A DNA stretch of 64,000 bases from Vicinamibacterales bacterium (GTDB lineage Bacteria; Acidobacteriota; Vicinamibacteria; Vicinamibacterales; 2-12-FULL-66-21): contig DATJFQ010000024.1 in NCBI GenBank assembly GCA_035495555.1, forward strand, positions 5,705 to 69,704. Reading direction: 5' to 3'. Below the pieces are notes generated by a model. The model was not told where the DNA came from. It made no database searches and saw only the letters and a list, made by a program, of their open reading frames with translations. The translations under genes were made by a program, and so were the position numbers. Positions within the stretch are counted from its first letter, which is position 1. The number at the start of each line of letters is the position of its first letter. This document shows positions 5,174 through 57,770 of the stretch, one piece after another.

Positions 5174-5944
5174 TTAGAAGAGGGTCTGACCGTTCGACTT
5201 CAGCCAGCGCTCCGACTCGCGGAATCCCGGATCCATCGACTCCACGGATTTCCAGAAACGACGCGAGTGGTTCGGATGCTCGAGGTGCGCGAGTTCGTGG
5301 ATCAGAATGTAGCGCCGGACTGACGGAGGCATCTGAATAAGCCGATAGTTGAGCGCGATCGTGCCGGCGCGTGAGCACGATCCCCAACGCGAGCGCTGAT
5401 CACGAACGCTCACGCGTTTCACCGTGAGCTGGTACTGCGCGGCGAGCGCGAGAAGCTGGGGCGGCAGGTCGCGTCCCGCCGTCGCGCGCATCGCGTGTCG
5501 CACCGCGTCTCGAATATCTGCTCCTGCGGAGACGGTGATGGTCAGACCGCCGAGCGTTGCGCGCAATCCATCCATCGCCGAGACGATCGTCAGCCGCTCG
5601 GGCGTGCCGTCGAGGAGGACGAGTGTCCCGTCCGCCCATGGTGACGGCTCGCCCGGCACCTGCAGACGCGCGCGCTGCCTCAGCGCCCACGAGAAGTGAC
5701 GCTCCGCGAACCGAAACGCCTCGGCGCGCGAGCCGCCTCGCGGAATCGTGACCCGCAGCGAGCCGTCAGGCCGCAGGCGCATGACGTAGCGTTTTGCACG
5801 CGGCATCCGCACGAGGTGGACCACAAAGCGCGACGCGCCAGAACCGATCGACAGCTCGCGCGCGGGCGGCGGCGATTCAGTCGCGCCCAATGGCAACCGC
5901 AGTTGTGCTGTGGGCATCTTCCGCACGGCGTTTCTCGCCATCAA
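5174..5944 (-). CDS. YgjP/DUF45-type (M48-like) metal-dependent hydrolase
   Basis: C-terminal block RRYILIHELAHLEHPNHSRRFWKSVE carries the HExxH zinc motif in the YgjP context. The exact start within the 256-aa ORF is uncertain. Confidence 0.7.
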   Translation of the reverse strand: MMARNAVRKMPTAQLRLPLGATESPPPARELSIGSGASRFVVHLVRMPRAKRYVMRLRPDGSLRVTIPRGGSRAEAFRFAERHFSWALRQRARLQVPGEPSPWADGTLVLLDGTPERLTIVSAMDGLRATLGGLTITVSAGADIRDAVRHAMRATAGRDLPPQLLALAAQYQLTVKRVSVRDQRSRWGSCSRAGTIALNYRLIQMPPSVRRYILIHELAHLEHPNHSRRFWKSVESMDPGFRESERWLKSNGQTLF

Positions 5945-10827: not shown

Positions 10828-12347
10828 GACTCGCGGCGCGCCGACGCGGAGAGCTTGATCAAGTACGCCGACGGCGTGGCCCAGAAGCGCGCGCGCAAGT
10901 CGCGAAGGCTGTCCGCACCGCCGTAACTGATCGACGAGCAGAGGTGCTTCATCATGTCCCGCACGATCGTGCGCGCGGAGCCCCGGGCGGGGACGCTGAT
11001 CTCCATGCCTTCGGCGCCGATCGCTTCGAGCTCGACGCGATCCGCGTCCTCGACGTCGAGTCGGTCGCGAATCGCTTCGAGAGACGCCATGCCGCGCAGG
11101 ACCTTGAAAGGCACCTTGACTGCTTTCTGCTGCTCTGGCAGCAGAACCGACTTGTGAACGATTTCGCCTGGCGCCTCCTCGGTGCCGGCGAACGCGCTCC
11201 CGAGCATGGCAGTGTCGCCTCCGAAAATCAGCGCGAGCGCCAGCGCACCGTGGCGGCGGATGCCCCCGTCTGCGATGAGCGGCACGTCGCTGTCTGCCAC
11301 GACCGTGCGGCACTCGACGAGCGCCTGCGCCTGCGGGACGCCGAAGCTCGTCGTCATGCGCGTGGTGCAGCCGCCGCCGGGGCCGATGCCGACCTTGATT
11401 GCGTCGACCCCGCGGTCGAGCAGGAACTTCGCTCCCTCCGCCGTGCCGATATTTCCGGCGATGAGATCCACGTCGGGGTGGCCCTTTCGGAGTTCGGCGA
11501 TCGCGCGGTCCATCACGACGGAATGGCCGTGCGCGATATCGATGACGAGCACGTCGACGCCCGCCTTGATCAGCTCCGCCGCGCGCTCCAGGTAGTCACC
11601 CGTCGCGCCGATCGCGGCACCGACCATCAGGCGGCCGTGCTCGTCCCGCGTGGCAAACGGCAGCTTCCGCTGACGGACGATATCGCGCGAGGTGATGAGG
11701 CCGAGCAGCCGGCCGTCGTCGTCGACGAGCGGCAGCTTTTTCACGCGCCGCTCCGTCATGATCCGTTGCGCGTCGGCAAGGGAGGCGGGCCCGCGGTGGA
11801 CCACCAGATGGTCGAGCGGTGTCATCCGGTCGCGCACGCGTAAGCGGTCCGGCGTGACGAACCGGATGTCGCGTTCCGTCAACAGGCCAGCCAGCCGTCC
11901 GTTGGCGTCCGTGACCACGAGCGTGCCGACGCGCGACCGCGTCATCAGCGCCTTTGCTTCCGTGAGCGTTGCGTCGACGGTCACGCTGTACGGGTCGCGG
12001 ATGATGCCGTGCTGCGTCCGCTTCACGATCTCGACTTCCCGGACCTGCGGCTGGATGTCGCCGGGCCGGAATCCGCGGTCGATGATCCCGATCCCGCCCT
12101 CCTCCGCCTGAACGATCGCCATCGGCGCACGGGTGACGGTGTCCATGTTCGCGGAGACGATCGGCCGTTTCAGCGAGATGCGGCGCGTCAGGCGGCAGGA
12201 GAGATCGATCGCGCGTGGATCCCGCCGCTCGACGACGCTGAACTGCGGCGCGAGCAGGAAGTCGTCGAACGTGGCGCCGCGAACGAGATCGAGGACGAAG
12301 GCGATCGCGGCCCGATCCAGCGGCCGCGGAAACTCGGGAGGCACCAT
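10815..12347 (-). CDS. guaB: Inosine-5'-monophosphate dehydrogenase
   Basis: Start moved to ATG 12347 (MVPPEF...FDDFLLAPQFSVV). Contains SANMDTVT, a tandem CBS pair and the catalytic loop GIGPGGGCTTR. 510 aa. Confidence 0.92.
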   Translation of the reverse strand: MVPPEFPRPLDRAAIAFVLDLVRGATFDDFLLAPQFSVVERRDPRAIDLSCRLTRRISLKRPIVSANMDTVTRAPMAIVQAEEGGIGIIDRGFRPGDIQPQVREVEIVKRTQHGIIRDPYSVTVDATLTEAKALMTRSRVGTLVVTDANGRLAGLLTERDIRFVTPDRLRVRDRMTPLDHLVVHRGPASLADAQRIMTERRVKKLPLVDDDGRLLGLITSRDIVRQRKLPFATRDEHGRLMVGAAIGATGDYLERAAELIKAGVDVLVIDIAHGHSVVMDRAIAELRKGHPDVDLIAGNIGTAEGAKFLLDRGVDAIKVGIGPGGGCTTRMTTSFGVPQAQALVECRTVVADSDVPLIADGGIRRHGALALALIFGGDTAMLGSAFAGTEEAPGEIVHKSVLLPEQQKAVKVPFKVLRGMASLEAIRDRLDVEDADRVELEAIGAEGMEISVPARGSARTIVRDMMKHLCSSISYGGADSLRDLRARFWATPSAYLIKLSASARRESYDR

Positions 12348-13442: not shown

Positions 13443-14096
13443 ATGCACTCCGTAGAGACGATTGAGCCGTTGCTGCGGGAGCGACTCGCTGGCACGCTGC
13501 CCGGCGTCGAGGTACAGCTTCGGTTCGCCTCCGGCTTGCCGCGCAAGGGTTGGAAACCCGGCGTCTATCCAAGTGATGCCAGGGTTGCCGCCGCGCTCCT
13601 GCTTCTCTACCCCGGTCCCGAGGGACTGACGATCCCGCTCACGGTCCGCGCGAGTCACTTACGCCGCCACGCGGGTCAGATCAGCCTGCCTGGGGGGGCC
13701 GCAGAAGCTGGCGAGTCACTCGAGGCGGCTGCGCTGCGCGAAGCGCACGAAGAAATCGGTGTGCCGTCGGAGTCTGTTCGCATTCTGGGATCCCTCACGC
13801 CGGTATACGTGCTCGTCAGCGGCTTCACGCTCAACCCGATCGTGGGCATCACCGACACGCGACCTGACTTTCGCGCAGCCGCGCACGAAGTCGATCAAAT
13901 CCTGGAAGTGTCGCTCGACGACGTGCAGGACGCTTCGCGGATTCGAACGGGCACGCGCATCCGCGAGGGGGTCGCCGTCGAATATCCGTACTTCGATCTG
14001 CACGGCCATCAAGTGTGGGGCGCGACGGCGATGATTCTGGGAGAGTTCATCTCGCTGCTGCAGTCGCGGGGCGGACACAGTGAGATCGCAGATTGA
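13443..14096 (+). CDS. Nudix hydrolase, CoA pyrophosphatase-like
   Basis: Nudix box LPGGAAEAGESLEAAALREAHEEIGV, preceded by LTVRASHLRRHAGQIS as in NudL/PCD1-type CoA pyrophosphatases. Confidence 0.8.
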   Translation: MHSVETIEPLLRERLAGTLPGVEVQLRFASGLPRKGWKPGVYPSDARVAAALLLLYPGPEGLTIPLTVRASHLRRHAGQISLPGGAAEAGESLEAAALREAHEEIGVPSESVRILGSLTPVYVLVSGFTLNPIVGITDTRPDFRAAAHEVDQILEVSLDDVQDASRIRTGTRIREGVAVEYPYFDLHGHQVWGATAMILGEFISLLQSRGGHSEIAD

Positions 14097-14132
14097 TGAT
14101 TGCAGATTGATGATTGCAGATTGCTGATTGCA
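14084..14132. repeat. Heptanucleotide tandem array (GATCGCA GATTGAT GATTGCA GATTGAT GATTGCA GATTGCT GATTGCA)
   Basis: Seven contiguous 7-nt units read directly. The array overlaps the Nudix stop codon (14094-14096) and ends 9 nt before the convergent methyltransferase stop (14142). Confidence 0.95.
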
Positions 14133-20787: not shown

Positions 20788-23280
20788 ATGAGGACACTCG
20801 GACGCGAGCTCAGATTCGCCGTGCGCGCGCTGCGCAAGCAGCCGGCGTTCTCGGCCATCGTCGTGCTGACGCTCGGCCTCGGTATCGGCGCGAATACCGC
20901 CATCTTTTCGCTCCTCGATCAGGTGCTCCTGCGCCGCCTTCCCGTGCAGGACCCGCAGCAGCTCGTCCTCCTCGACGGCCCCGGCCCGTTCCAGGGCCGC
21001 ACGATGAACGCGCAGACCTTCTCGTACCCGATGTATCGCGACTTCCGCGATCGGACCAAAGTGTTCTCCGGCGTCCTCGGCCGCATGGCCACACCGGTGA
21101 CGCTCACGTTCAACGGCCAGGCCGAACGGGTGAACGCCGAGCTCGTCACCGGCAACTTCTTCGACGTGCTCGGCGTCCGGCCGGCGCTCGGCCGCGTGCT
21201 CAACGCGTCGGACGACGGCGCGCCTGGCGCGAATCCCGTGGTCGTCCTGAGCTACGGATACTGGACGCGCCGGTTTGGCGGGGACCCCACGGTTCTCGAC
21301 CAGACGCTGTCGATCAACGGCCACCCGATGACCATCGTTGGCGTCTCGGCTCGCGGGTTCGAAGGCGTCCAGGTCGGCTCGCCCCCCGATGTAATGGTGC
21401 CGGTGTCGATGAAAGCGCAGATGACGCCGACGTGGGACGACCTCTCGGATCGCCGAAGCCGATGGCTCACCGTGATGGCGAGGCTGGCGCCCGGCGTGAC
21501 GCGCGAGCGCGCAGCGGCGCAGATGAACGTCGTCTACCGCCAGATTCTGGAGGAGGAAGTCGCCACGCTGCCGAAGACGACCTCCCAGTCCTTCCGGCAA
21601 CGATTCGTCGCCAAGCACCTCGACGTGCTGCCCGGCGCGCGCGGGCTGTCGGATCTGCGAAGCGAGTTCAATACGCCGCTCATCGTGCTCATGTGCATGG
21701 TCGGGGTCGTCCTGCTCATCGCCTGCGCGAACATCGCCAACCTGCTGCTCGCGCGCGCCGCATCCCGGCAGCGCGAGGTCTCCATTCGTCTGGCGCTCGG
21801 CGCCGGACGGCGCCGCATCGTGATGCAGCAACTGTCGGAAAGCCTCGTGCTGGCGCTGACTGGGGCCGGCGCGGGATTGCTGTTTGCGACGTGGACCGGA
21901 TCGGCCCTGCTGGCCGCGCTGCCTGGTGACGGCGCCTCCCGCGGGCTGCATGCAGGCCCGGATGCGCGCGTCGTCCTCTTCGCGTTCGCCCTCGCCGTGA
22001 TCACGGCGCTCGTGTTCAGCGTCATGCCGTCCCTGCACGCGACACGGACACCTGTCAGCGGCGCGTTGAAAGAGGAGGCGGGGAACGTGGCGGGCGGCAG
22101 CCGGCAAGCGCGCGTGCGCGGCGCCCTCGTCGTCGCGCAGGTCGCGCTTTCGATGGTGCTGCTCTCGGGCGCGGCGCTGTTTGCGCGGAGCCTGTTCAAT
22201 CTGAAATCCGTCGATCCGGGGTTCACGATCGACCACCTCGTCACCTTTTCGATCGACCCGTCGCTGAGCGGATACGACACTCCGCGCAGCCGTACGCTCT
22301 TTCAGCGGTTGCAGGCGGAGCTGGCGTCGCTCCCAGGCGTGCGTTCGGTGTCGATGGCAGAACTCGGCCCGCTGACCGGCAACAACTGGAGCATGACCGT
22401 CAAGGTCGATGGATACGCAGCCAAGGAGAACGAAGACCTCAACCCGAACGTCGACGGCATCGGCGCCGGGTACTTCTCCACGATGGGCGTCCCGCTCGTC
22501 GCTGGCCGGGAATTCACCGCCGCGGACGATGCCGGCTCGCCGCACGTGGCGGTCGTCAACGAAACCATGGCGCACTACTTCTTCGGCAGCTCGAACCCGA
22601 TCGGCCGCCGCATCTGGTTTGGCCGCGATCGCAACATCGACATCCAGATCGTGGGCGTCGTAAAGGACACACGGTCGCTGAGCCTGAAGAACGACGCTGT
22701 GCGGTTCGTCTACATCCCGTACACTCAGGATCCGAATCTCGGTCCGCTGACTTTCTACGTGCGCGCGGCCGCTGGTCCCGCGACTCCCGCGGCAGCGGTG
22801 CGCGACGCCGTGCATCGCATCGATCCGTCGCTGCCGATGTACGACATGAAGACGATGACGGCGCAGGTCGACGATTCGCTGTTCGTCGATCGAATGGTGG
22901 CAGCGTTGTCCGTCGCGTTCGGCGCCCTGGCGACGCTGCTCGCGGCGCTCGGGCTTTACGGTGTGATCTCTTACGCGGTCGCGCGGCGGACGCGTGAGAT
23001 TGGCATCCGCATGGCGCTTGGCGCCGAGCGGACCCGCGTCCTATGGCTGGTGCTGCGCGAGGCCGCAGTCCTGGCGGGCATCGGCATCGTCGCGGGGCTT
23101 GGTGCCGCGATGCTGCTGGTCCGCTACGTTCAGGCGCAGCTTTACGGCCTTTCGGCCACGGACCCGCGGACGCTCGTCGCGGCTGCCGCCGTTCTGGGGG
23201 TCATCGCACTCCTGGCCGGCTACGTCCCCGCGCGGCGCGCGACGGCGATCGATCCGATGCTGGCGCTCAGGACGGAGTGA
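20788..23280 (+). CDS. ADOP-family duplicated permease (ADOP5, no prefix, divergent from PadR3)
   Basis: Start moved from 20662 to ATG 20788 (MRTLGRELRFAVRALRKQPAF...GIGANTAIFS). The upstream codons of the track ORF overlap PadR3. Ends ARRATAIDPMLALRTE. Confidence 0.9.
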   Translation: MRTLGRELRFAVRALRKQPAFSAIVVLTLGLGIGANTAIFSLLDQVLLRRLPVQDPQQLVLLDGPGPFQGRTMNAQTFSYPMYRDFRDRTKVFSGVLGRMATPVTLTFNGQAERVNAELVTGNFFDVLGVRPALGRVLNASDDGAPGANPVVVLSYGYWTRRFGGDPTVLDQTLSINGHPMTIVGVSARGFEGVQVGSPPDVMVPVSMKAQMTPTWDDLSDRRSRWLTVMARLAPGVTRERAAAQMNVVYRQILEEEVATLPKTTSQSFRQRFVAKHLDVLPGARGLSDLRSEFNTPLIVLMCMVGVVLLIACANIANLLLARAASRQREVSIRLALGAGRRRIVMQQLSESLVLALTGAGAGLLFATWTGSALLAALPGDGASRGLHAGPDARVVLFAFALAVITALVFSVMPSLHATRTPVSGALKEEAGNVAGGSRQARVRGALVVAQVALSMVLLSGAALFARSLFNLKSVDPGFTIDHLVTFSIDPSLSGYDTPRSRTLFQRLQAELASLPGVRSVSMAELGPLTGNNWSMTVKVDGYAAKENEDLNPNVDGIGAGYFSTMGVPLVAGREFTAADDAGSPHVAVVNETMAHYFFGSSNPIGRRIWFGRDRNIDIQIVGVVKDTRSLSLKNDAVRFVYIPYTQDPNLGPLTFYVRAAAGPATPAAAVRDAVHRIDPSLPMYDMKTMTAQVDDSLFVDRMVAALSVAFGALATLLAALGLYGVISYAVARRTREIGIRMALGAERTRVLWLVLREAAVLAGIGIVAGLGAAMLLVRYVQAQLYGLSATDPRTLVAAAAVLGVIALLAGYVPARRATAIDPMLALRTE

Positions 23281-23300
23281 CCGACCCGCCGGCGAATAGA

Positions 23301-26000
23301 ATGAGGAACATGCCTCATCGCACAGGCCTGATCCTCTTTCTTCTTCTCCTCACCGCGCCACTCGGCGCCCAGCGTCCTGCGAAGCCGGCGGCAAAATCGC
23401 CCGCCCCCGATGCCGCGCCACAGGTGGGCGTCAGCATCACGGAGCCGATGCTGAAGGGCGTCGCGGCCCGCGCCATCGGACCGGCAATCATGGGCGGTCG
23501 CATATCAGACATCGCGTACGACCCGTCTGATCCCTGGACGTTCTATGTGGCCACGGCGCACGGCGGCCTCATGAAAACGACGGACAACGGCGGTTCGTTC
23601 ACGGCGCTCACCGAAAAGGACGCGATCGTGTCGACCGGTGCCGTGGCCGTCGCGCCGTCGAACCCGAAGATCGTCTGGTTGGGAACGGGCGAGGCGAACG
23701 ATCGGAACAGCGCCGGCTTTGGAAACGGCGTCTACCGATCCACCGACGGCGGCTCGACGTGGACGCACGCGGGGCTCGACAAGTCTCGAACGGTCGCCCG
23801 CATCGCGGTCCATCCCACAAACCCGGATATCGCCTATGCGGCAGTGCCAGGCGACCTCTGGACGCCAACTCCCGATCGCGGTCTCTATAAGACGACGGAC
23901 GGAGGCAAGACATGGAAGGCCGTCCTGCAGGCGGAGGACCAGAAAGACAAGGTCGGCGCCGGCGACGTCATCGTGGATCCGTCGAATCCGGAAATCGTTT
24001 TCGCCGCGCTGTACGCGCGGCGGCGGACGCCGTGGTCGTTCGCCGCGGGGCCGGAAGCCAGCAACGGCAAGGATCTCGGGGGCATATTCCGCAGCACTGA
24101 CGGCGGCGCTACGTGGAAGAAGCTCTCGAACGGCTTGCCGCCAGCGGCGGGACGCATCGGTCTGACGGTCTATCCCAGAAATCCGAAGATCGTCTACGCC
24201 GTCGTGCAGAGTTTTGCCGGTGGCACGTCGAACATCGACGACGTAACCAGCAAGAGCGGCGGCGTGTTCCGCAGCGACGACGGCGGGGACACGTGGGTCC
24301 GGCGCAGCAACCTCGACCCGCGGCCGTTCTACTTCAGCCAGATTCGCGTCGACCCCCAGGACGATCAGAAGGTCTACGTGCTCGGCTTCATGCTCCACGT
24401 GTCCGAAGATGGGGGGAAGACCTGGCGTGAAGACCGGTTCAAGAACGTCCACTCCGACTGCCACGCGCTCGCCATCGATCCGCGCACGCCCGGACGGCTG
24501 CTCCTGGGCACCGATGGCGGCGTGTATCAGTCTTACGATCGCGGCGCGCAGTGGGCGCACGTGAACACGGTCGCCATCGGCGAGTTCTACCGGATCGCCG
24601 TCGACGACAGCACGCCGTATCGGATCTGCGGCGGCCTGCAGGACAACGCGAACTGGGTCGGCCCGAGCGCCACGCGCACGAAGGACGGCATCGTCAACGA
24701 CGACTGGACGAACATCGAAGGCGGCGATGGCATCTACTGCTTCTTCGACGCAACCGACCACAACGTTGTCTACGCGGAGTCGCAGTCGGGCACCGCGTAT
24801 CGCCTGAACCTGGAGAGCGGCGCGACGAAGGAGTTCATGCCGCAGCCTGCCGAAGGTCAGGCGGCGTTCCGCTTCCACTGGAGCTCGCCGTTCATCCGCA
24901 GCGTGCACGATCCGAAGCGCTTTTATCTTGCCGGCAACCGCGTGTTCATGTTCAGGGAACGCGGCGACGAATGGCAGGCGATCAGCCCCGACCTGTCGAC
25001 GAACAATCCCGAGCGCACCACGGCGACCGGCAGCGGTGCCGAAACGTACGGCGTCGTGTTCACGCTGGCGGAGTCGCCGCTGAAAGACGGAATGCTATGG
25101 GCCGGAACCGACGACGGCAAGTTGTGGGTGACGGAGGACAACGGCGCGCACTGGAGCGATCTCACGTCAACGCTTCCAGGCGACGCGAAAGGACAATGGA
25201 TCGCGCGGGTCGAGGCCGGGCATGCCGATGCGAACGTCGCATATCTGGTCGTCAGCAGCTATCAATCCGGCAATTATGCGCCGCTGGTGTACCGCACCGG
25301 GGACAAGGGACGCACGTGGCAGAGCATCGCCGCGAATCTCTCGAAGGACTGGCCGGCACGCGTCGTCCGCGAGGATCCGTCGAACCCGAGTCTCCTCTTT
25401 GCCGGGACCGAGACGGGACTGTTCGTCAGCTTCGATCGCGGCGGGTCGTGGCAGCCGCTCGGGGCTCTGCCGACGGTGCCCGTCGACGACATCCTCGTCA
25501 ATCCGCGCACGCACGATCTCGTCATCGCGACGCACGGGCGCAGCCTGTACATCATCGACAACATCTCGGCGTTGGAGCAGTTGACGGCCGAGAACGCGGC
25601 GACGCCTGCGCACCTGTTTCCGATCGCGCCCGCCGTCGCCTTCGAGCCGTTGCCGGGGTGGGTCGATTCGAATGGTTCGACGGGCATTTACCGCGGCGCA
25701 AACCCGCCGGTGGCGGCGTCCATCGACGTCTACGTCCACGCGTTCACAGGCGATTCGATCTCGATCGCTGTCAAAGGGCCTGACGGGAAGCCCGTCGCCA
25801 ATCTGTCCGCGCCCGGGACACCGGGTTTCAACCGCATCACGTGGGACCTGTACCCGTCGTCGGAACTTCTGACCGCGTATGGTGGCGAGGGGCGGAAGTT
25901 CGTCAAGCCTGGTGAGTACGAGGTGACGATGACGTACGGCGAGACGACCGAGACACAGAAGGTGACCGTCTCCGCGCTGCCAGATATCGAGACGCGATAA
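23301..26000 (+). CDS. Secreted BNR/Asp-box repeat beta-propeller protein (sortilin/VPS10- or GH74-like)
   Basis: Start moved to ATG 23301 (MRNMPHRTGLILFLLLLTAPLGAQ signal peptide). Repeated S/T-x-D-x-G-x-T/S-W boxes: STDGGSTWTH, TTDGGKTWKA, STDGGATWKK, SDDGGDTWVR, SEDGGKTWRE, TEDNGAHWSD, TGDKGRTWQS, SFDRGGSWQP. Confidence 0.8.
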   Translation: MRNMPHRTGLILFLLLLTAPLGAQRPAKPAAKSPAPDAAPQVGVSITEPMLKGVAARAIGPAIMGGRISDIAYDPSDPWTFYVATAHGGLMKTTDNGGSFTALTEKDAIVSTGAVAVAPSNPKIVWLGTGEANDRNSAGFGNGVYRSTDGGSTWTHAGLDKSRTVARIAVHPTNPDIAYAAVPGDLWTPTPDRGLYKTTDGGKTWKAVLQAEDQKDKVGAGDVIVDPSNPEIVFAALYARRRTPWSFAAGPEASNGKDLGGIFRSTDGGATWKKLSNGLPPAAGRIGLTVYPRNPKIVYAVVQSFAGGTSNIDDVTSKSGGVFRSDDGGDTWVRRSNLDPRPFYFSQIRVDPQDDQKVYVLGFMLHVSEDGGKTWREDRFKNVHSDCHALAIDPRTPGRLLLGTDGGVYQSYDRGAQWAHVNTVAIGEFYRIAVDDSTPYRICGGLQDNANWVGPSATRTKDGIVNDDWTNIEGGDGIYCFFDATDHNVVYAESQSGTAYRLNLESGATKEFMPQPAEGQAAFRFHWSSPFIRSVHDPKRFYLAGNRVFMFRERGDEWQAISPDLSTNNPERTTATGSGAETYGVVFTLAESPLKDGMLWAGTDDGKLWVTEDNGAHWSDLTSTLPGDAKGQWIARVEAGHADANVAYLVVSSYQSGNYAPLVYRTGDKGRTWQSIAANLSKDWPARVVREDPSNPSLLFAGTETGLFVSFDRGGSWQPLGALPTVPVDDILVNPRTHDLVIATHGRSLYIIDNISALEQLTAENAATPAHLFPIAPAVAFEPLPGWVDSNGSTGIYRGANPPVAASIDVYVHAFTGDSISIAVKGPDGKPVANLSAPGTPGFNRITWDLYPSSELLTAYGGEGRKFVKPGEYEVTMTYGETTETQKVTVSALPDIETR

Positions 26001-26005: not shown

Positions 26006-26129
26006 AAAAAAAGGGGACAACCGCCATTTTTCGACAAAAATGGGGACAGCCAGCTATTGTCCTCTCGAGTCCCAAGTTGTCTGGCTGTCCCCATTTTTCG
26101 CAAATAATGGCGGTTGTCCCCTTTTTTTT
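26006..26129. repeat. Nested palindromic element, copy A (A7-GGGGACAACCGCCATT...AAAAATGGGGACAGCCAG / 27-nt loop / CTGGCTGTCCCCATTTTT...AATGGCGGTTGTCCCC-T8); probable bidirectional intrinsic terminator or MITE-like element
   Basis: Read directly. Left arm 26006-26053 and right arm 26081-26129 are reverse complements apart from a short central mismatch patch. Starts 6 nt after the BNR gene stop. A second copy lies at 42513-42616. Confidence 0.9.
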
Positions 26130-26175
26130 GGCTATGACGCTGAAACGGTGATTCGGCGTACGAAACCGTAGTCTG

Positions 26176-26226
26176 GCGCGCACCCGCACACCTGTGTGCG
26201 CACCCGCAAGCTCTTTGTGCGCACCA
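26176..26226. promoter_or_regulatory. Three direct repeats of a self-complementary GC box, (G/T)GCGCACC(C/A)G(C)A, spaced 20-21 bp, upstream of the HAF-repeat gene
   Basis: GCGCGCACCCGCA (26176-26188), GTGCGCACCCGCA (26196-26208), GTGCGCACCAGA (26217-26228), plus a degenerate GGTGCACACC (26232-26241). The core GTGCGCAC is its own reverse complement. Confidence 0.4.
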
Positions 26227-26288
26227 GATGAGGTGCACACCTCTGCAGGGCATTGCCGTTGCTCGATCTGCTCCGGAGGTCAACGACA

Positions 26289-27668
26289 ATGCGTCGCTTG
26301 CTGTTTACGGGCGCGGTGTGCGCGGTGCTGCTGTGCCCCGCCAGTCGATCGGTCCTGGCGGAGGGGCCCGGCTACACCATCACCAATCTGGGGACGTTTT
26401 CAGGAGTCGTCCCGTTCATCACCGGCATCAACGCCAGCGGTGCCGTCTCGGGATGGGTCCATACCGGCCTCGGCGATCGCGCGCTGCGCTATACCGATTC
26501 GGGCGGCTGGGCGCTCATCCCGGGCCTCGAATCAATCACGAGTTACGCATTCGGCATCAACGATCACGGCGACGTGGTCGGGACCGCTCTGCTTGCAAAC
26601 GGCGACATACGGGCGTTCCGCTACACCGATGGCGGCAGCGTTGAATTCGTCGCGCCGTTGGACGGCGGCAGGTCTACCCAGGGTTATGGGATCAGCAACA
26701 CCGGCGAGATGACCGGTTACGGCGACAAGTCGAATTTCACAACAGTTGCGTTCCGCCAGATGCCAGGCCTGCTCGCGCAGCCGATCGACGCATTCGGCAG
26801 CTCCTACTCAGCCGGGTGCGGCATCAACGACAGCGGCCAGGTCGCCGGGAGCTTCATGACGCCCGACAATCTGCTGCACGGATTCCGCGCGAACGTCGAT
26901 GGTACGGTCGCGGAGATTTCGGGATTGAACGGGCCTGAGAGCCAGAACTTCCCATGCGCGATCGACGGCGACGGTAATGTCACGGGGCAGGCCGAAACGG
27001 CCACTGGCGCCCTCCACGCCTTCCTGTTCAGCAGCGTCAATCCGCTGGACCTGGACTCGTTCGGATCCACCGGCAGCGCCGGCATTGCGATCTCGAACGG
27101 CGTGGTGGTCGGCACCTACACGCTCCCGGACAACGTGTCGACGCATGCGTTCAGGTACGATCGGACGACCGGCACGGTCGATCTGAATACACTGCTGCCT
27201 TCCGCGAGCGGCTGGGTGCTGACCGACGGCGGGGCGGTGAACGCCAAGGGCGTGATGGCCGGGCAAGGAACGCTGAATGGAGCGTCAGCCGCGTGGAAAT
27301 TGTCACCGCCTTCGGATACGACGCCCCCCACGATCGCTGCGCTGTCGGTGTCGCCGTCAGCGTTGAAGCCGGATCACAAGATGACGCCGGTCGTCGTCTC
27401 CGTCTCCGCGACAGACGACGTGGACCCGCATCCGTCCTGTTCCATTACCGCGATCGACGCGACCGACGGGGATCCGGGCGACGCCGCCATCACGGGTCCG
27501 CTCACCGCGTCTGTGCTGTCGGCGAAGGATGCCCGCGGGAACACCCGCGTCTACACGCTCACGGTGACGTGCAGCGACGCGTCACGGAATGCGTCGACGG
27601 GAACGGTAACGGTGCAGGTGGCGGGCAACGGTGCGTCGAAGGCCCTGACCAGGATCAAGGGAGACTGA
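26289..27668 (+). CDS. Secreted HAF-family extracellular repeat protein with C-terminal Ig-like domain
   Basis: Start moved to ATG 26289 (MRRLLFTGAVCAVLLCPASRSVLA signal peptide). Recurrent ...G.N..G.V.G......HAF/RAF motifs (IRAFRYTD, LHGFRAN, GALHAFLF, STHAFRYD), as in the HAF extracellular repeat family (TIGR03803, from memory). Confidence 0.75.
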   Translation: MRRLLFTGAVCAVLLCPASRSVLAEGPGYTITNLGTFSGVVPFITGINASGAVSGWVHTGLGDRALRYTDSGGWALIPGLESITSYAFGINDHGDVVGTALLANGDIRAFRYTDGGSVEFVAPLDGGRSTQGYGISNTGEMTGYGDKSNFTTVAFRQMPGLLAQPIDAFGSSYSAGCGINDSGQVAGSFMTPDNLLHGFRANVDGTVAEISGLNGPESQNFPCAIDGDGNVTGQAETATGALHAFLFSSVNPLDLDSFGSTGSAGIAISNGVVVGTYTLPDNVSTHAFRYDRTTGTVDLNTLLPSASGWVLTDGGAVNAKGVMAGQGTLNGASAAWKLSPPSDTTPPTIAALSVSPSALKPDHKMTPVVVSVSATDDVDPHPSCSITAIDATDGDPGDAAITGPLTASVLSAKDARGNTRVYTLTVTCSDASRNASTGTVTVQVAGNGASKALTRIKGD

Positions 27669-31973: not shown

Positions 31974-32530
31974 GGCGCGCGCACCTCGCGCCTCGCGCCT
32001 CCCGTCTCACGCCGCGCGCCGATCCGCCTTGTCTTGCGATGGGTCCCCGCTCGGACAACTCCGCCTCCGCGCAGGCAGAGACTCCGCCTGCGCTCCGGCG
32101 GGATCTCGCCGAAGCCGCTTCGCGGCGGAGGCGGACCCGCTTCGTGGTCGGCGGCGGGAAAGACTTCGACGAGGAGCCGCCTCCGCGCGACGCGCGCGCC
32201 CGTCCTCGCCCCCATCGCTGGTGAGGCGATCGGGCTCGCGCGCCTCTCGCCTCCCGCCTCGCGCCGCGCGCCTCGCACCGCGCGCCTCCCGCCTGACGCC
32301 GCGCGCCGATCCGCCTTGTCTTGCGATGGGGCCCCCGCTCGGACAGCCCGCTTCGTGCTCGGCGGCCGGAAAGATTGTCGACGAGGAGCCGCCTCCGCGC
32401 GAAGCGGGCGCCCGTCCTCGCGCCCATCGCTGGTGAGGCGATCGGGCCCGCGCGTCTCTCTCGCCCCACCTCCCGCCTCGCGCCTCGCACCTCGCACCTC
32501 GCGCCTCGCGCCTCGCGCCTCGCGCCTCGC
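31974..32530. repeat. Composite repeat region: heptamer arrays (GCGCCTC-type; 31974-32022, 32240-32302, 32466-32530) alternating with two copies of a hairpin-forming element (32009-32239 and 32296-32465; period 287 bp)
   Basis: Read directly. ACGCCGCGCGCCGATCCGCCTTGTCTTGCGATGGG...CCCATCGCTGGTGAGGCGATCGGG occurs twice. Copy 1 carries an extra ~80-nt internal hairpin. The last array abuts the TonB-dependent receptor stop (32531). Confidence 0.9.
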
Positions 32531-38153: not shown

Positions 38154-38209
38154 CTTCGTGCCTGGTGCTCGGTGCGGGGCGCTCGGTGCGGGGTGCTTGG
38201 TGCTCGGTG
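38154..38209. repeat. Heptanucleotide tandem array (CTTCGTG CCTGGTG CTCGGTG CGGGGCG CTCGGTG CGGGGTG CTTGGTG CTCGGTG)
   Basis: Eight contiguous 7-nt units with a 14-nt higher-order period. Ends 5 nt from the stop of the hypothetical gene (38215). Lies 77 nt upstream of the HTH gene start (38077). Confidence 0.9.
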
Positions 38210-38214
38210 CGGCT

Positions 38215-39582: not shown

Positions 39583-39641
39583 GCAGTTGTGTAGTTGGTA
39601 GTTGGTAGTTGGTAGTTGCGTAGTTGCGTAGCTCGCAGTTG
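39583..39641. repeat. Heptanucleotide tandem array (GTAGTTG-type: GCAGTTG TGTAGTTG GTAGTTG x3 CGTAGTTG ...)
   Basis: Read directly. Lies between convergent stops (methyltransferase 39559-39561, ogt 39657-39659). Confidence 0.9.
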
Positions 39642-39656
39642 CGGCGCGCCCCCGCG

Positions 39657-40165: not shown

Positions 40166-42622
40166 TTACTTCACCAGGACAGATGCTTGCGCGGATCGTC
40201 CGTCGGCGTCCCGCACTTCGATCGCATGCGCGCCGACGACCAGCGGCCATGAGAGTGCCCGCTCCGACGAACTCGTGCCGAGGCGCTGTCCATCGATATA
40301 CCACGTCAGCGTGGTCGGTCGCACCGCGACCGCGCGAAGCGGCAGAGCCTGGAAGTCGCGCCGCAGCGTCGGATCGACACTGTACGTCGCGCCCGACGCC
40401 GGACTGACGACCTTCAGCACCGGCCCGTGCGACTGAACGTACGCAGCGCGTTCTGCCCGACGGCCGGACTGAAGTGGCGTGCTCGATTCCGCCGGGCCGC
40501 GCAACTGAAGATGCGCGCTATGTTCCCCACGCGCCTGCGCCTGCCACGCGCGGAACTCTGGCGGGTAGATGGTCAGCAGCCCCTCGTCGCTTCGATGGTG
40601 CCATGAGCACGGAAGCGCGACATCGCTCGTCCGCACCCACTCCTGCCGCTGATTCGGGCATGCATCGGTTGCGCGCATTCCCGACAGCGCACAAATCGAG
40701 GCGCGCTGCACGCCCTCGGGTATCGGCACGATCGGCTCGCCTTCCCGTGCATCCCCTCCGGTCCGCTGGACGGCGGCGAGCATGACGGCGTGGAACAGCG
40801 GCCCGGCTCCAGTGACACCGGAGGAATCGCGGAGCGGCGTTCGATCGAAGTTGCCGACCCATACGCCAACCGTCACGTCCCGCGTGTACCCGATCGTCCA
40901 GTTGTCGTGATACGCCTGCGATGTGCCGGTTTTCACGGCGACCGGAAATGGAAATTCCAGATTGCCCCCGCGGCCGAAGATGAATGCGCGCGCCTCGGGG
41001 TCGCTCAAAACGTCCGTCACCAGAAAGGCTGTTACGGGACTGACCATCGTGCGTGACGGCCGAGGCGATGAGGTGGCAACGGCGGTCGGAGAAACGTATA
41101 CCCCACCGCGCGCGAACGCGGCGTACGCCGCGACGAGTTCGTCGAGCCTGACCTCGGCGTTGCCCAGCGTCAGGCCGAGGCCGTAATACGCGGCGTTCTT
41201 GTCGAACGTCGAAATGCCGGCGCGGGTCAGAAACCGCAGCAGGGTGCTGACGCCGACGTCTGACGCGAGCGCCACCGCCGGCACGTTTTCGGAGCCGGCG
41301 AGCGCGCTCCTCGCGAGGAGCGGTCCGCGGTACTTCCCGTCATAGTTGCGCGGCGTATAGAGAATCCCGGTCTCCGCCGTCGGAAATGACGATGGGATGT
41401 CGGGCAGCATCGTCGCGGGCCCGCGTCCCTGCTCGAAGGCGAGCGCATAGGTGAACGGCTTCAACGCCGATCCCGGCTGCCGCGGCACACGCGGACCGTT
41501 GATGGTGCCGCCGTGGGCCGCATCGAAATAGTCGCCGGACCCCTCCCACGCCAGCCATTCCGACGTCCGATTGTCGAGCACGACGACGGCGACGTTGTGA
41601 GCGCCGTGGGCATCGAGCGCATCGCGCTGGGACGAAATGATTCCTTCGATGTCGCGCTGCAGGTCGAGGTCGATGGTCGTCTGGATGCGGGGCGGCCGCG
41701 GCGCGGGCACGTCGGCGAGGACCATCTCCGCGAAATGCGGCGCGAGAAAGGGCGCGTGGCTCCGCTCGAGCGAGAGCCGCTCGCTGAGGGCCGCCGTCAA
41801 CTGCTCCGGCGTCAGGGCGCCAGCCGCCCGCATGCGGCGGAGGACGTCGTGCTGGCGCGACGTCGCCGCACGGCTGCTCTTCCACGGATTGAACGCGGAG
41901 GGTCGCTGCGGGAGGCCCGCAAGGAATGCGGCCTGAGCCGGCGTCAGCATCGAGGGGGGCACGCCGAAGTACAGCAGGCTCGCCCGCGCCGCGCCGCTGA
42001 CCTGGTTGCCGTAGGACGCCAGGTTGAGATACATGGCGAGCATTTCCGGCTTGGAATACCGGTGCTCGAGCCGGAGGGCGAGAAGGATTTCGCGGGCCTT
42101 CCAGGCGATGCTGTGACGTGCCGCAGGCCCGCGTCGCTGGAGCAGCAATTTCGCGACCTGCTGACTGATCGTCGAACCGCCTTCGACGATCCGGCGCTCT
42201 TCGATGTCGTGCCAGAGCGCGCGCGCCCAGCCGAGCGGATCGACGCCTGGATGGGACCAGAAGCGGCGATCCTCCGCCGCAACCGTGGCAGCAACGAGCG
42301 TCGCGGGCAGCGCCGCGGGATCGATCTGCTGCAGCCGCGCTCCGTTTGCGGACAGCGCTTCGTACAACGGGCGCCCGTCCCGGTCGACGATGATCGTCGA
42401 AGGCGCGGCCGCGTCCTTCAACAAATCCGCCGGAACCGGGCCGCAGCGGATCCAAATCCCCAGGACACCCGCGAGCCCTGCGGCCGCCGCGCCCCGCCAG
42501 AGATGCCACCACAAAAAAAGGGGACAACCGCCATTTCTTTGCAAAAAAGGGGACAGCCAGGTAGGGGGCCCGGCTGTCCCCTTTTTTTGCGAAAAATGGC
42601 GGTCGTCCCCTTTTTTCGTCAC
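40166..42622 (-). CDS. pbpC: Penicillin-binding protein 1C (bifunctional GT51 transglycosylase/transpeptidase)
   Basis: GT51 motifs EDRRFWSHPGVD and GGSTISQQVAKLL. SxxK motif at PGSALKPF. PBP1C C-terminal domain. The start is ambiguous: GTG 42622 (GAGG 6 nt upstream, overlaps the A2M stop as GTGA) would translate palindromic element B; TTG 42514 would start just after it. The track ORF beyond 42622 overlaps A2M and is rejected. Confidence 0.85.
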   Translation of the reverse strand: MTKKGDDRHFSQKKGTAGPPTWLSPFLQRNGGCPLFLWWHLWRGAAAAGLAGVLGIWIRCGPVPADLLKDAAAPSTIIVDRDGRPLYEALSANGARLQQIDPAALPATLVAATVAAEDRRFWSHPGVDPLGWARALWHDIEERRIVEGGSTISQQVAKLLLQRRGPAARHSIAWKAREILLALRLEHRYSKPEMLAMYLNLASYGNQVSGAARASLLYFGVPPSMLTPAQAAFLAGLPQRPSAFNPWKSSRAATSRQHDVLRRMRAAGALTPEQLTAALSERLSLERSHAPFLAPHFAEMVLADVPAPRPPRIQTTIDLDLQRDIEGIISSQRDALDAHGAHNVAVVVLDNRTSEWLAWEGSGDYFDAAHGGTINGPRVPRQPGSALKPFTYALAFEQGRGPATMLPDIPSSFPTAETGILYTPRNYDGKYRGPLLARSALAGSENVPAVALASDVGVSTLLRFLTRAGISTFDKNAAYYGLGLTLGNAEVRLDELVAAYAAFARGGVYVSPTAVATSSPRPSRTMVSPVTAFLVTDVLSDPEARAFIFGRGGNLEFPFPVAVKTGTSQAYHDNWTIGYTRDVTVGVWVGNFDRTPLRDSSGVTGAGPLFHAVMLAAVQRTGGDAREGEPIVPIPEGVQRASICALSGMRATDACPNQRQEWVRTSDVALPCSWHHRSDEGLLTIYPPEFRAWQAQARGEHSAHLQLRGPAESSTPLQSGRRAERAAYVQSHGPVLKVVSPASGATYSVDPTLRRDFQALPLRAVAVRPTTLTWYIDGQRLGTSSSERALSWPLVVGAHAIEVRDADGRSAQASVLVK
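42513..42616. repeat. Nested palindromic element, copy B (A7-GGGGACAACCGCCATTT...AAAAAAGGGGACAGCCAG / 10-nt loop / CGGCTGTCCCCTTTTTTT...AATGGCGGTCGTCCCC-T6)
   Basis: Read directly. The first 24 nt (AAAAAAAGGGGACAACCGCCATTT) are identical to copy A. The element fills the A2M-stop/pbpC junction. Confidence 0.9.
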
Positions 42623-45600
42623 TGGCGGACCTCGATCACCGCGGTCGCGGTGCGGCCGAACACCTCGGGCTCGTACATCTCTTCGGCGCGGGCCGGCGCC
42701 GTCCGGAACGTTCCCGCAGTTGTGGCCCGGACGATATACGAGAAGGTGTGACGGCCTTCGGACAGTCGCGTCGCGAACAGCTCGACGCGATCGTCGTGGC
42801 GTTCGACGCGGTCGAAGCCGCCGCGCTGCCACCACGCGGTCCAGTCGCTGGCGTCGCCCTGGTCGTCCTGCGACTTCGCGAGGGACGCAGCCGACGAGGC
42901 GAACCACGACTCGACGGGCTCGAGGCCGGCTGGCACCGGATCCGTCACCGCGACGAACCGGCGTTCCTTCGTGAGCTGCAGCGTGAGCGTGACCCGGATG
43001 AGATCTCCGGCGTTGAACCTCGTCGCGGCCGGACGCGAGCCGTTTTCAACGTACGGTGCATATGCGCGTTCGAGGCGGATGCCCTGATCCAGTCCGTCCT
43101 GGAACAACTGATCGACGGCGTACCGGAACCGCGCCGAGTAGAACAGCGTGCCCTCTCCGCTCTTTGAGAACGTCAATGACTGTTCGGCACCGGGTGTCCC
43201 TTCCGACGCGAGCCGGGCCATCGGCACCTCCGCCGTGACGGCATCGGTAGTCCGTCCGGCAAAGGTGTGCGTCAACAGGCCCTTGCCACCGAGCGATGCG
43301 GTCGCCGTGAAATTCGGGACGACGGCTTCGTACTTGCGGTAATACGCGACGAGGGCTTCGAGCGCGAGCGCGTTCTCCTGCGTATTGCGCCAGCGTCCTT
43401 TTTCCCGCACCTGCAGCAGCCAGGTAACGAACTGCCGGTACCGATCGTCCGGTTGGCCGCTCTTGACGAGCGAGTTGAGCACGATGGCCGTGGATCGGAC
43501 ATTCGAGTTCCAGAACCAGAGCAGATAGGGATCGCTCAGTTCCTCGACGTGCGCCGTCGTTGCCTCCGGCAGGATCGAGTTGCCGATGCGGCGCCGCAAC
43601 TCGGCTTCGCGAACGCCAGACGACTCCCCTTTCGCAAGCAGCGCGTCGTGCAGATACGCGAGCGCGAACACCGGCATGCGGTCGCGGTAGCCATACAGGC
43701 GCGTGATGTTCGAATCTTCGTTGCGTCCGCCCTCGACGAGGACCTTCACCGCAAACGCCTGCCACGCCGTGTACATCGGCCACCACCCTTCGTTGGTTGG
43801 CGGCGCCTGCGCGAGCGACTCGTGAAGATACCTGTAGGCGCGCTCGCGCATCTGGGGGTCAACGTCGTATTTCAGATCGGATGCGACCTGGAACACGTGC
43901 AGCAGATACGCCGTGAGGTACGGCGACGTCGTGTAGCAGGCGCCGGGCCAGTACGCGAATCCGCCACTGGGGCACTGGAATTTCTCGAGTTCCTTGAGCG
44001 CCGACTGCGCCGTGGGCCGCAGCTTGGCCGCGTCGATCCCCGGCAGCCTGAAGGCTCCGCCGAGATCGGCAGCAAGGAGCATCGCCAGCGCGCGCGATCC
44101 GCGTTGTTCGGCGCAGCCGTAGGGATATTCGACCAGGTATCTCGCGCCTTCTCCGAGGTTGACGAGCGCGGTCGACGCGATCTCCACGTGCAGGCCGCCA
44201 AGCCCGGGGACAACGCCGCTCGGGATCGTCAGCCGCTCCGATGCGGAGCCGGTCGACTGTCCGACGGCCGCAACGGTTTCCGGCGACGCCAGCACTTCGA
44301 CCGGAATCGAATCTTCGAAAGCGTCCGACTCGCCGTTGAGCGACACGGTCACCTTGACGCGCGCGCGTCCGATCGCACGGCCGGCCGCATCGAACCGCAC
44401 TTCGACCGATCCGCCCGCAGGGACGTCCACGGTGCGCGGTGCCGTGTCGGAGAAGATCATCACGTCGGGATCAAGGCTTTCCACCGTGACCTTCGCCGAT
44501 CCCGCAGATGCAAGCTGACTGGTGACGACGGCGCCAAACGTCGCCTTGTCACCGACCGCAAGGAACCGCGGGAACGCGGCTTTCAATGTGACCGGTTTGT
44601 TGATCCGGATCTCTGCGTCGGCAGACCCGAACCGCGACGCCTTGTCGGCAGCGACGGCCATGATCCGGTACGTCGTCAACGACTCGGGCAGCTTCACGGC
44701 GACCGACGCGTGGCCGCGCGCGTCTGTCGTCACCGAACCGAGCCAGAACGCCAGCACGCGGAAGTCACGGCGGATCGTGCCTGCGCCGCTGTCCGCGCCG
44801 CCGCCGCCGCCGTCCGTCTCACCCTTCGGCGTCAGCACGCGCCTGGAGATGATGCGCTGCCGAGTATCTTCGGTGAGCACCGCCAGCGACTTCTGCACGT
44901 AAACCGAATCGAGGACATCCGGCGTCTTGTACGCCGTCAACGAGAGGACGCCGTAATCCACGGCCCAGAGAGTGACCTCGCTCTGGCTCGGGACGCCCTG
45001 AGGGTCCTTCACGTCGACCGTCACGCTCGCGCTGTTCGCTGGCCGGTACTCCTCTTTGTTGGCATGCACCGCAACCGTCAGCCGCTTGGATACGTCCTCG
45101 ACGCCAAGCCGTACGTACCCGACGCGGAACGCGGGCTTGCCGGGATCACTCGGATCGTCCCTGGCATTGGCAGGCTGCGCCGTCCGCCCTTTGATGAGGA
45201 CGACCGACACGAAGAGATCCGGAATCGCATCCTCCGTGATGGGCACGTCGACCGACTGCTGCGTGGACGTCAGTTCGAATTGGCGATGCGTGCGAATACC
45301 TTCTCGCTCGACCGTGAGGAGGGCCGTCGCGCGCTCCCACGGCGACTGGATCATGATGCGTGCGGTCTCGCCGGGCCGGTATGTTTGCTTTTCCGCGACG
45401 AGATCGATTCGGTTGTGATCGTAGCGTTCCCACGCGGTGTAGCCGCTACCGAGCGAATAGAAGCTTTCGCGCGTCACCGTGTAGCGGCCGTTGTCCGCAT
45501 CGGCGCGCGCCTCGAGCACGAAGTAGCCGCCGGCGGGCAGCGGGATGTCGATCGGCACGGGCGAGGCAGCTGAGGTCACTGTCCACGAACCGGCGGGGAC

Positions 45601-48492: not shown

Positions 48493-48558
48493 AGCGCGAC
48501 TCTGATCCCGTTTGACACCGCCCGCGCGAGTCTCGCTGGGCAGCGGCGGACTGATTTT

Positions 48559-48663
48559 CGACTGGAAACTGGCGACTGGCAACTGGCGACTGGTAACTGA
48601 AGACTGGTAACTGGAAACTGGCAACTGGCAACTGGCAACTGAAGACTGGTAACTGGCGACTAT
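48559..48663. repeat. Heptanucleotide tandem array, 15 units of NNACTGG (minus-strand CCAGTTG-type) with a 42-nt higher-order period
   Basis: Units verified one by one: CGACTGG AAACTGG CGACTGG CAACTGG CGACTGG TAACTGA AGACTGG TAACTGG AAACTGG CAACTGG CAACTGG CAACTGA AGACTGG TAACTGG CGACTAT. Lies 1 nt from the HTH gene stop (48665) and 67 nt upstream of the A2M start. Confidence 0.95.
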
Positions 48664-54710: not shown

Positions 54711-54772
54711 CCATGTCGATCTTACCGCTCCGGATGCCTCGTTGAGTTCGGCAGCCTGAAGCCGCGCAGCGG

Positions 54773-57765: not shown

Positions 57766-57770
57766 ACATA

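Follow-up and report, generated by a model that had tools for sequence, protein, structure and literature searches.

Two nested palindromic elements of a Vicinamibacterales genome are probably clusters of a REP/REPIN-like repeat unit tied to a Y1 tyrosine transposase

Introduction

Short repeats of the REP, REPIN and BIME kind, which go with the group 2 and group 3 REP-associated tyrosine transposases (RAYTs) of Enterobacteria and Pseudomonas, were reportedly described by Nunvar in 2010 and by Bertels and Rainey in 2011. Here we analyse a 64-kb stretch of a Vicinamibacterales genome (contig DATJFQ010000024.1; the whole stretch is referred to as the window), which contains two nested palindromic elements, copy A at 26006–26129 and copy B at 42513–42616. 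Both elements are probably built from clustered copies of a short repeat unit, as part of a REP/REPIN-like system tied to a single-copy HUH/Y1 tyrosine transposase.

The closest described systems involve RAYT-like TIRYT genes, which are flanked by inverted repeats instead of GTAG REPs (Di Nocera 2013; PMC3733652). Many of these flanking repeats share the word GGGGWSAS, copies of them occur elsewhere as singles, dimers and clusters (“TIRtrons”), and there is a sharply defined Acidobacteria group among the TIRYTs (PMC3733652). TIRYTs are identical with TnpA-Y1 subclass 2.1 and with RAYT group 1 of Bertels (Quentin 2018; PMC6006769). Subclass 2.1 proteins have NH[YF]H, W[EQ]/FQ and YIELNP motifs and a C-terminal tail, and their median length is 238 aa; the motif alternatives available for comparison are NHVH or NH[YF]H, W[EQ] or FQ, and YIELNP or Y[IV]HLNP (PMC6006769, Table 1). 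Abundant flanking 16-mers have been found for RAYT groups 2 and 3 only (Bertels 2017; PMC5581495). Neither a Vicinamibacterales host nor the unit sequence described below was found in the literature on TIRYTs, subclass 2.1 and group 1 that we compared, and a literature search for the box sequence yielded nothing beyond eukaryotic primers and comparable matches.

Results

The two palindromes lie exactly where the initial annotation had placed them, and each is a four-unit cluster. Copy A contains two direct and two inverted units around a long centre and forms a 48-bp imperfect hairpin; no strand is assigned to it. Its outer left unit (26006–26034, plus strand) fits the unit consensus and consists of an A7 run, the box GGGGACAACC (26013–26022) and then GCCATTTTTCG. 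The inner left unit (26035–26051, plus strand) consists of ACAAAAAT and the box GGGGACAGCC (26042–26051). The centre (26052–26082) is a non-palindromic sequence of 31 nucleotides (nt), AGCTATTGTCCTCTCGAGTCCCAAGTTGTCT, and is followed by the inverted inner and outer right units (26083–26129, minus strand), which carry boxes at 26083–26092 and 26112–26121 and a T8 run. Copy B, likewise without strand, has a short centre, A7 and T6 runs, and boxes at 42520–42529 and 42549–42558 on the plus strand and at 42572–42581 and 42601–42610 on the minus strand.

The first 24 nt, AAAAAAAGGGGACAACCGCCATTT, are identical in the two copies, as had been noticed at the outset. Four GGGGACA(A/G)CC boxes had been claimed for each copy; seven of the eight are exact, and the eighth (42601–42610), GGGGACGACC, differs from GGGGACARCC by one mismatch. 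The seven exact boxes are the only ones in 64 kb, where 0.25 are expected, and none of 100 shuffled sequences reached seven. The inverted-repeat arms of copy A (26006–26053 and 26081–26128) are 48 nt long, 92 % complementary and 27 nt apart, and those of copy B (42511–42561 and 42569–42619) are 51 nt long, 84 % complementary and 7 nt apart. The loop length given earlier thus holds for copy A, while the 10 nt given for copy B corresponds to a stricter stem. The arms of the two copies are 88–91 % alike.

Both copies are predicted to fold into one long hairpin on either strand, with RNA folding energies of −75 to −84 kcal/mol (z = −10.5 to −14.3) and DNA folding energies of −46 to −50 kcal/mol (z about −10 to −11). 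Consistent with the initial description of low-GC elements in a GC-rich genome, their A+T content is 47–54 %, and the G+C content of the window is 63–69 %. An Rfam scan of the elements gave nothing at the gathering thresholds. The matches at permissive E values (plant and animal miRNA precursors, ftsZ-DE) are all far below the cut-offs and were dismissed as meaningless generic long hairpins. A blastn search of plasmids with copy A gave no match.

Alignment of 122 units gives the consensus TCGC A6-7 GGGGACA(A/G)CC GCC ATTTTT CGC with a period of 29 nt, and none of the 122 units departs from the GGGGAC core. The A and T runs lie within the unit itself; an inverted cluster therefore always forms a hairpin with a U-tract, whichever strand is read. 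The strict 29-nt period of the tandem units and the built-in A/T runs that yield a terminator-like hairpin distinguish the elements from TIRtrons. Other differences separate them from the REPs of group 2/3: the consensus has no GTAG or CGTC tag and has GGGGAC as its invariant core, and the unit of the window's lineage is AT-rich and barely palindromic alone. Direct tandems are followed by inverted tandems, unlike the strict alternation of BIMEs.

A scan of JGI metagenomes with the pattern GGGGACARCCGCCAT-N8-20-GGGGACAGCC yielded 41 loci, which hold 25 distinct elements with at least three boxes in both orientations. With direct boxes written as + and inverted ones as −, their patterns are ++−−, ++−, +++−−, ++−−− and +++−; direct-only arrays (++++, +++, ++) also occur. 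The genes and sequences that flank these elements are unrelated to one another. The same units thus stand at 25 or more unrelated sites in soil metagenomes, which bears out the initial preference for a dispersed family over an ad hoc terminator. The centres fall into two classes. Class 1 centres are about 15 nt long and palindromic (GTCTCAATTTGAGAC), and the boxes of the element then span 93 nt in all. Class 2 centres are about 30 nt long, with a CTCGAG/TTCGAG core and a degenerate GGGAC, and the boxes span 108 nt; copy A is of this second class, as judged by comparison with the centres of L133, L137, L139, L140, L142, L162 and L163. Metagenome contigs often break in or at the elements, as expected for a multi-copy repeat. 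Specifically, contig L147 is 99.86 % identical to positions 42559–44720 of the window and ends inside copy B.

A second scan, with GGGGACARCC-N15-25-GGGGACARCC against a collection with one genome per species, returned at least 116 loci, mostly chance matches or unrelated tandem repeats, and only loci with AT-rich complementary flanks were used. Related variants with the same nested architecture occur at several loci each in at least five metagenome-assembled genomes (MAGs) of Vicinamibacterales and Acidobacteriota. Where present, the elements have a density of about 1 per 20–30 kb; the window contains 2 per 64 kb. Like the repeats of TIRtrons, the units thus recur away from the transposase gene described next, in the two clusters of the window, in the 25 distinct multi-unit metagenome elements and at several loci per MAG.

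The initial annotation had suggested that a RAYT-type transposase might mobilise the elements, and a Y1 gene bracketed by the same units is indeed present in relatives. In L130, one open reading frame (ORF) of 226 aa at 10925–11602 (the same locus, from another sample, is L161 3933–4610) is enclosed by ++ and −−− arrays of the window's subfamily, about 750 bp apart. Its product matches Pfam Y1_Tnp with 42.3 bits (E = 1e-10; cut-off 23) and the NCBIfam REP-associated tyrosine transposase family with 62.9 bits (E = 3e-17); unlike group 2/3 RAYTs, it stays below the equivalog cut-off of 80 bits. The protein has the motifs NHFH, YQ (in GHIYQGRY) and YIEANP and a conserved C-terminal tail of about 90 aa. 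In 38 homologues N59, H60 and H62 of the HUH motif NHFH and Y122 of YIEANP are invariant, and F61 is nearly so. These motifs, the length of 226 aa and the tail are like those of the TIRYTs, and by sequence the transposase, whose gene occurs in relatives (L130, L167–L175), is of the RAYT group 1, TIRYT or TnpA-Y1 subclass 2.1 type.

An AlphaFold model of the L130 protein has a pLDDT of 87.7. In a fold search, its top PDB match is 4ER8, the E. coli RAYT/TnpA-REP bound to a REP hairpin (E = 1.4e-6, TM 0.67 on the target), as would suit a REP/REPIN system, and the next matches are IS200/IS605 transposases. The two proteins are only 17 % identical in the structural alignment; a sequence search of PDB with the transposase gave no match, so that 4ER8 was found by the fold search only. 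The support for binding and cleavage of the unit by the transposase consists of this fold match and the conserved HUH and tyrosine residues.

The layout around the gene is the same in L130/L161 and L167–L174: GGGGACAG boxes are direct upstream and inverted downstream. As in TIRtrons, a Y1/HUH gene is bracketed by inverted repeats that carry GGGG-A-C-A-G, and GGGGACAG fits GGGGWSAS exactly. The number of upstream units is 2 or 3 between similar contigs (L167 and L168 versus L169 and L161). Four homologues (94, 74, 69 and 59 % identity) were found by protein sequence alone, and each is bracketed by the inverted unit variant of its own genome. The order hypothetical gene, RAYT, DAO-type oxidase is kept around the homologues of 94, 74 and 69 % identity, and is not kept in L175 (59 %). 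A single-copy, syntenically conserved RAYT bracketed by inverted units, with its neighbourhood kept at 69–94 % identity, is also a trait of REP/REPIN systems. In the MAG SMAG_U15549, the GGGGACAGTCCCC variant stands both beside the RAYT (L170) and at the pbpC junction (L121). In L175, the RAYT is bracketed by GAAACGGGGACAGCCCCCGTTTC hairpins with swapped loop orientation.

More distant homologues show similar brackets. A homologue of 39 % identity in a Bacillota MAG, which has the related core GGGGGACAGCCC, is bracketed by GGGGGACAGCCC / GACAGGGGGACAGCCCTTTTGTCAC repeats. Six plasmid homologues (27–34 % identity) were picked by protein similarity alone. Three of the six are bracketed by inverted repeats with GGGGTCAG or GGGGACAG, in the form of aaaaGGGGTCAGacccc, aaaGGGGACAGattt or aactGGGGTCAGagc, and a fourth has three direct copies, upstream only. 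The upstream-direct and downstream-inverted layout, shared by three of the six plasmid homologues, is that of the TIRtron/TIRYT systems, among whose known hosts are Acidobacteria.

L130 probably comes from the species of the window or a very close one, on the circumstantial ground that L130 and the window are equally distant from two populations. Specifically, L130 is 92–95 % identical to ERZ273113xx contigs and 80 % identical to MAG SMAG_U15549, and the corresponding values for the window are 93 % and 77–87 %.

The two sites differ in their history among relatives. Copy A is present in L122, a 95 % orthologue by protein identity of the BNR gene, and is absent in L123 (86 % orthologue), L124 and L125. 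In L123, which thus provides an orthologous copy-A site without the element, as had been sought for comparison, the downstream leader (GAAACGGTGATTC...) still aligns. These sequences indicate that the element at site A is a recent gain. At the copy-B site, L117 (95 % orthologue) has a four-unit element; L118 (82 %) has only AAAAAGGGGACAA-11 nt-GTCCCCTATTT, a simple GGGGAC...GTCCCC hairpin; L119 and L120 (79 %) have a single box, AAAGGGGACAACCGCGTTTTTCGCC; and L121 (77 %; MAG SMAG_U15549) has three hairpins, including the mini-palindrome GGGGACAGTCCCC. Judging from this series, the A2M/pbpC junction has long been occupied by repeats, which were reshaped lineage by lineage. Neither of the two things named beforehand as speaking against a family, a total of just two copies and identical orthologous loci, is what we see.

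A set of 66 units from 17 lineages has a 13-nt core, GGGGACA(G/A)CC-N-CC, with lineage-specific, still complementary stems (aaaat/atttt, gaaata/tattt, gaattc/gaattc, gaaac/gtttc). The units were selected for the core and not for the flanks; core invariance within this set is therefore by construction. When a 12-pair hairpin is laid over the 66 units, 69.2 % of cells are paired, compared with 62.6 % in shuffled sequences (a level that none of 500 shuffles attained). For covariation the score is 0.216, compared with 0.115 for shuffled sequences (again reached by 0 of 500) and 0.125–0.128 when the pairing partner is slid by one column. Pair 8-22, beside the core, is AU in 16 units, UA in 12 and CG in 10. 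In related lineages (L175, PL23a, Saccharibacteria) a single unit already forms a strong hairpin, with energies of −6 to −12.7 kcal/mol and z values of −3 to −5; in the window's lineage, pairing between inverted units dominates the structure.

Going by the labels of the MAGs, conserved-core hairpin units occur in Acidobacteriota, candidate-phyla-radiation bacteria, Planctomycetota, the FCB group, Thermodesulfobacteriota and Alphaproteobacteria. Hairpin units that combine the core GGGGACAGCCACC with complementary flanks peculiar to each lineage were seen in L031, L091, L106, L073, L082, L092, L033 and L005/L072/L081; these loci come from MAGs with the labels Nomurabacteria, Saccharibacteria, Pirellulales, FCB group, Alphaproteobacteria and Thermodesulfobacteriota and from one unclassified bacterium. 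No Y1 gene was found near these GGGGACAGCCACC loci within the 8 kb examined per locus.

Other sequences with a related word were also observed. L023, L069, L097, L105, L010 and L099 (Terriglobia-type and other MAGs) carry a different repeat with the same word, GTGGGGACAGCCGCCCTCGGCTGTCC, which forms the hairpin GGACAGCCG / CGGCTGTCC and may be the repeat of the Acidobacteria TIRYT group of 2013. Pure tandem arrays whose unit contains GGGGACAGCC occur in L021 (1373–1520), L007 (1396–1540) and L029 (minus strand, about 5740–5790), from Acidobacteriota, Actinomycetes and Streptomyces; their units are the 14-mer GGGGACAGCCAAGT, the 17-mer GGGGACAGCCTCGACCC and the 10-mer GGGGACAGCC.

Pfam matches agree with the neighbours first proposed for the elements, namely the end of a BNR gene before copy A and an A2M/pbpC junction at copy B. 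The BNR/sortilin-type gene (23043–26000, plus strand) has its stop codon 5 nt upstream of copy A, and its true start is probably near 23310, because homologues are about 896 aa long. Downstream of copy A is a plus-strand gene (26289–27668) with a weak DUF3466 match. The leader of this gene (26140–26288) is conserved and aligns in L123 and L124, both of which lack copy A. It reads GAAACGGTGATTCGGCGTACGAAACCGTAGTCTGGCGC...GCAGGGCATTGCCGTTGCTCGATC, contains a 20-nt tandem repeat at 26178–26225 and possibly serves in regulation.

Copy B fills the gap between two minus-strand genes. The alpha-2-macroglobulin (A2M) gene (42619–48624) ends with a TGA stop codon (42619–42621) that abuts copy B. The start of pbpC (PBP1C; 40166–42514) is ambiguous and is either TTG 42514, in the terminal run of the element, or GTG 42622, which overlaps the TGA of A2M and from which the pbpC frame is open across all of copy B. 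P0001, the database pbpC protein from the 95 % relative, has a called length of 818 aa, to which the element contributes 36 codons. Among the relatives, L118 (82 %), L119 and L120 (both 79 %) have a called pbpC start and an A2M stop that overlap at GTGA. In L121, the gene caller puts the pbpC start at an ATG within the central loop of the element.

An open frame through copy B was rejected as a sign of translation, because such frames are the rule in the family. In a set made up of 26007–26127 and 42514–42616 of the window and 23 further elements in L117–L163, 106 of 150 frames (71 %) are open across the whole element, compared with 17 % in shuffles, and all six frames are depleted of stop codons; an open frame across copy B is therefore expected. 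Measured between their outermost boxes, the elements fall into two main size classes, 93 and 108 nt, each of them divisible by three.

The window has further repeats. Many tandem arrays with a 7-nt period are present, for example ACTGGCA x14, CGCGAGG x8, CCTCGCG x9 and TGAATCCC x11; they lie at 14084–14132, 32239–32307, 32469–32530, 38164–38211, 39585–39643, 48559–48661, 50413–50470, 51757–51836, 51879–51928 and 53755–53956. The array at 48559–48661 overlaps the predicted start of the A2M ORF (48624), and the arrays at 32465–32530 and 50413–50473 are 92 % complementary to each other. Positions 1–23300 and 54000–61000 contain several paralogous MacB/FtsX-type permease genes. In these permease regions are the repeat families D1–D8, with 3–4 copies each and 60–74 % identity; PadR regulators adjoin in relatives.

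Discussion

The window elements are Vicinamibacterales members of a known, little-studied REP/TIR-RAYT kind and are not purpose-built terminators. They share with the REP, REPIN and BIME elements of group 2/3 RAYTs the organisation as short extragenic units in inverted pairs and clusters, the long persistence at a site together with lineage-specific gains, and the placement near stop codons. Apart from the GTAG tag, they appear to work like group 2/3 REPINs in the respects that were compared. Because this tag, a defining feature, is missing, we do not file them there; their copy number, too, is probably lower.

By analogy with IS200/IS605 elements and with E. coli TnpA-REP, the transposase would act on single-stranded DNA, such as the lagging-strand template, where it would recognise the unit with its GGGGAC and would cut and rejoin it. 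Unit pairs would spread to new intergenic sites without target duplications. Once in place, arrays would gain units, lose units and decay, through slippage or through recombination between the 29-nt tandem units. As a side effect or secondary use, each cluster would be a long hairpin that ends in a U-run on either strand. Copy A would terminate transcription of the BNR gene; it appears well placed to do so, since it starts 5 nt past the BNR stop and the next gene has its own conserved leader. Copy B would attenuate read-through from A2M into pbpC or make it translation-dependent.

The structural part of the initial reading as two concentric bidirectional terminators stands: a hairpin with a T-run is present on both strands, and the terminator activity of the clusters is predicted from this layout. 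It is nevertheless very unlikely that the elements arose or are kept through host selection mainly as bidirectional intrinsic terminators or mRNA-stabilising hairpins, with a likeness that reflects a preferred terminator design and not mobility. The resemblance is considerable, as both copies have a very stable stem-loop with an A-run before and a T-run after it, and copy A follows a stop codon by 5 nt. Many family members lie within about 2–20 nt of a stop codon, and some exactly fill convergent gaps; specifically, the L143 element is separated from the two stops by 2 nt and 4 nt. The gene-context counts behind these positions come from a simple GC3-based ORF filter, which overlooks some genes and makes others start too early, and are qualitative only; L143 and L164 were checked by hand. 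At 20–40 kb of the window, canonical terminator-like sites show no enrichment (10 versus 11.2 expected), and imported hairpins could help there. Against this explanation, near-identical 29-nt units at 25 or more unrelated loci are unexpected for independently evolved terminators, the stems of about 50 bp are far longer than those of typical terminators, and the units bracket the Y1 transposase gene in the RAYT homologues looked up. Members also lie upstream of genes, as in L164 (about 40 nt upstream of a methyltransferase gene), and between divergent genes, as in L001 2040–2110 (between a pterin dehydratase gene and a TetR gene); therefore termination is not the defining role of the family and is at most secondary. 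Copy B in turn sits within the A2M–pbpC pair, an operon junction where the called pbpC start overlaps the A2M stop in L118, L119 and L120. Termination is thus unlikely as the sole explanation and plausible as an added, secondary function, for which we put the chances at about even.

Two further explanations call on a different protein. That the elements are miniature inverted-repeat transposable elements (MITEs), derived by internal deletion from a DDE-type insertion sequence or a Tn7/Mu-like transposon, with the boxes as transposase-binding sites in the ends, would account for the terminal inverted repeats, for the subterminal boxes that are direct on the left and inverted on the right, and for the variable centre. 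It is extremely unlikely, as the number of units (2 to 5) and their orientation patterns vary, unlike fixed transposon ends, and the sequences around the two window copies and the metagenome copies show no target-site duplication. Where units were seen to bracket a gene, among the Vicinamibacterales homologues that were looked up and in the Bacillota MAG, this gene always encodes a Y1/HUH transposase; no DDE gene bracketed by units was found. The family had at first been called MITE- or REP-like, and of these only the second description can be retained. The boxes might also be recognised by a host protein that binds DNA or RNA, for instance a regulator or a protein of the nucleoid, with an incidental link to the transposase. 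The invariant core and the regular 29-nt spacing would suit such a protein, and E. coli REP/BIME elements are known to bind IHF, gyrase and Pol I. We regard this as very unlikely, however, because the neighbouring genes share no function, no candidate binding protein was identified, and the same core recurs on either side of Y1 genes from distant phyla and from plasmids, which indicates the transposase as the recogniser. Other candidates were rejected outright: integron attC sites, considered on account of the nested four-box palindrome, as both a cassette array and an integrase are missing; DNA uptake sequences as inverted pairs, as the 64 kb contain only 8 boxes, all within the two elements; and CRISPR-like arrays, as there are no spacers.

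Several observations weigh against a REP/REPIN-like system tied to a Y1 transposase. A tblastn search did not find the transposase gene in the 64-kb window, and its presence in this genome is inferred from circumstantial arguments on distance. To our knowledge, no group-1 RAYT or TIRYT has been shown to cut or move its repeats. The orthologous loci compared revealed no transposition event and no precise empty site: site A of L123 holds about 40 nt of unrelated sequence in place of the element, and at site B some GGGGAC sequence is present in all relatives, pointing to remodelling in place and not to insertion. The density of the elements is modest, and several 13–20 kb stretches of relatives have none. 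The outer boxes of the window elements, GGGGACAA, end in A and miss the last position of GGGGWSAS. Single window-type units fold weakly (−2.8 to −7 kcal/mol), three of four no better than shuffles. In published surveys, flanking 16-mers of group 1 had only about 12 occurrences (PMC5581495), and no REP-like hairpins were found near subclass 2.1 genes (PMC6006769). Unlike the latter result, the unit of related lineages is a small hairpin with a co-varying stem.

There are indications that the recognition element of RAYT group 1 is a conserved-core hairpin common to several phyla. A wider proposal is more tentative, and we hold it to be possible rather than likely: the group-1 RAYTs (TIRYTs), currently regarded as devoid of REP-type hairpins and as linked weakly or not at all to repeat populations, may run a true REPIN-like system across many phyla, with a small hairpin of 13-nt core GGGGACAGCC-N-CC and freely co-varying stem as the recognition element. 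The Vicinamibacterales units would in that case have been built into stop-codon-free, terminator-mimicking clusters that the host tolerates or exploits at gene ends, and even in frame in the N-terminus of pbpC.

The analysis explains a conspicuous AT-rich palindrome in an abundant, poorly studied soil lineage. It also bears on annotation, since the elements break metagenome contigs and gene callers extend pbpC by 36 codons through the element. For RAYT group 1, which lacks established repeat biology and biochemistry, it provides a sequence-defined pair of repeat and transposase (the unit with its invariant core, and protein P0241). At the A2M/pbpC junction, the graded states seen among relatives (one box, a hairpin, a four-unit cluster) document in nature how such clusters grow in place. 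If the clusters terminate transcription, host gene expression would be shaped by the repeats of a domesticated transposase.

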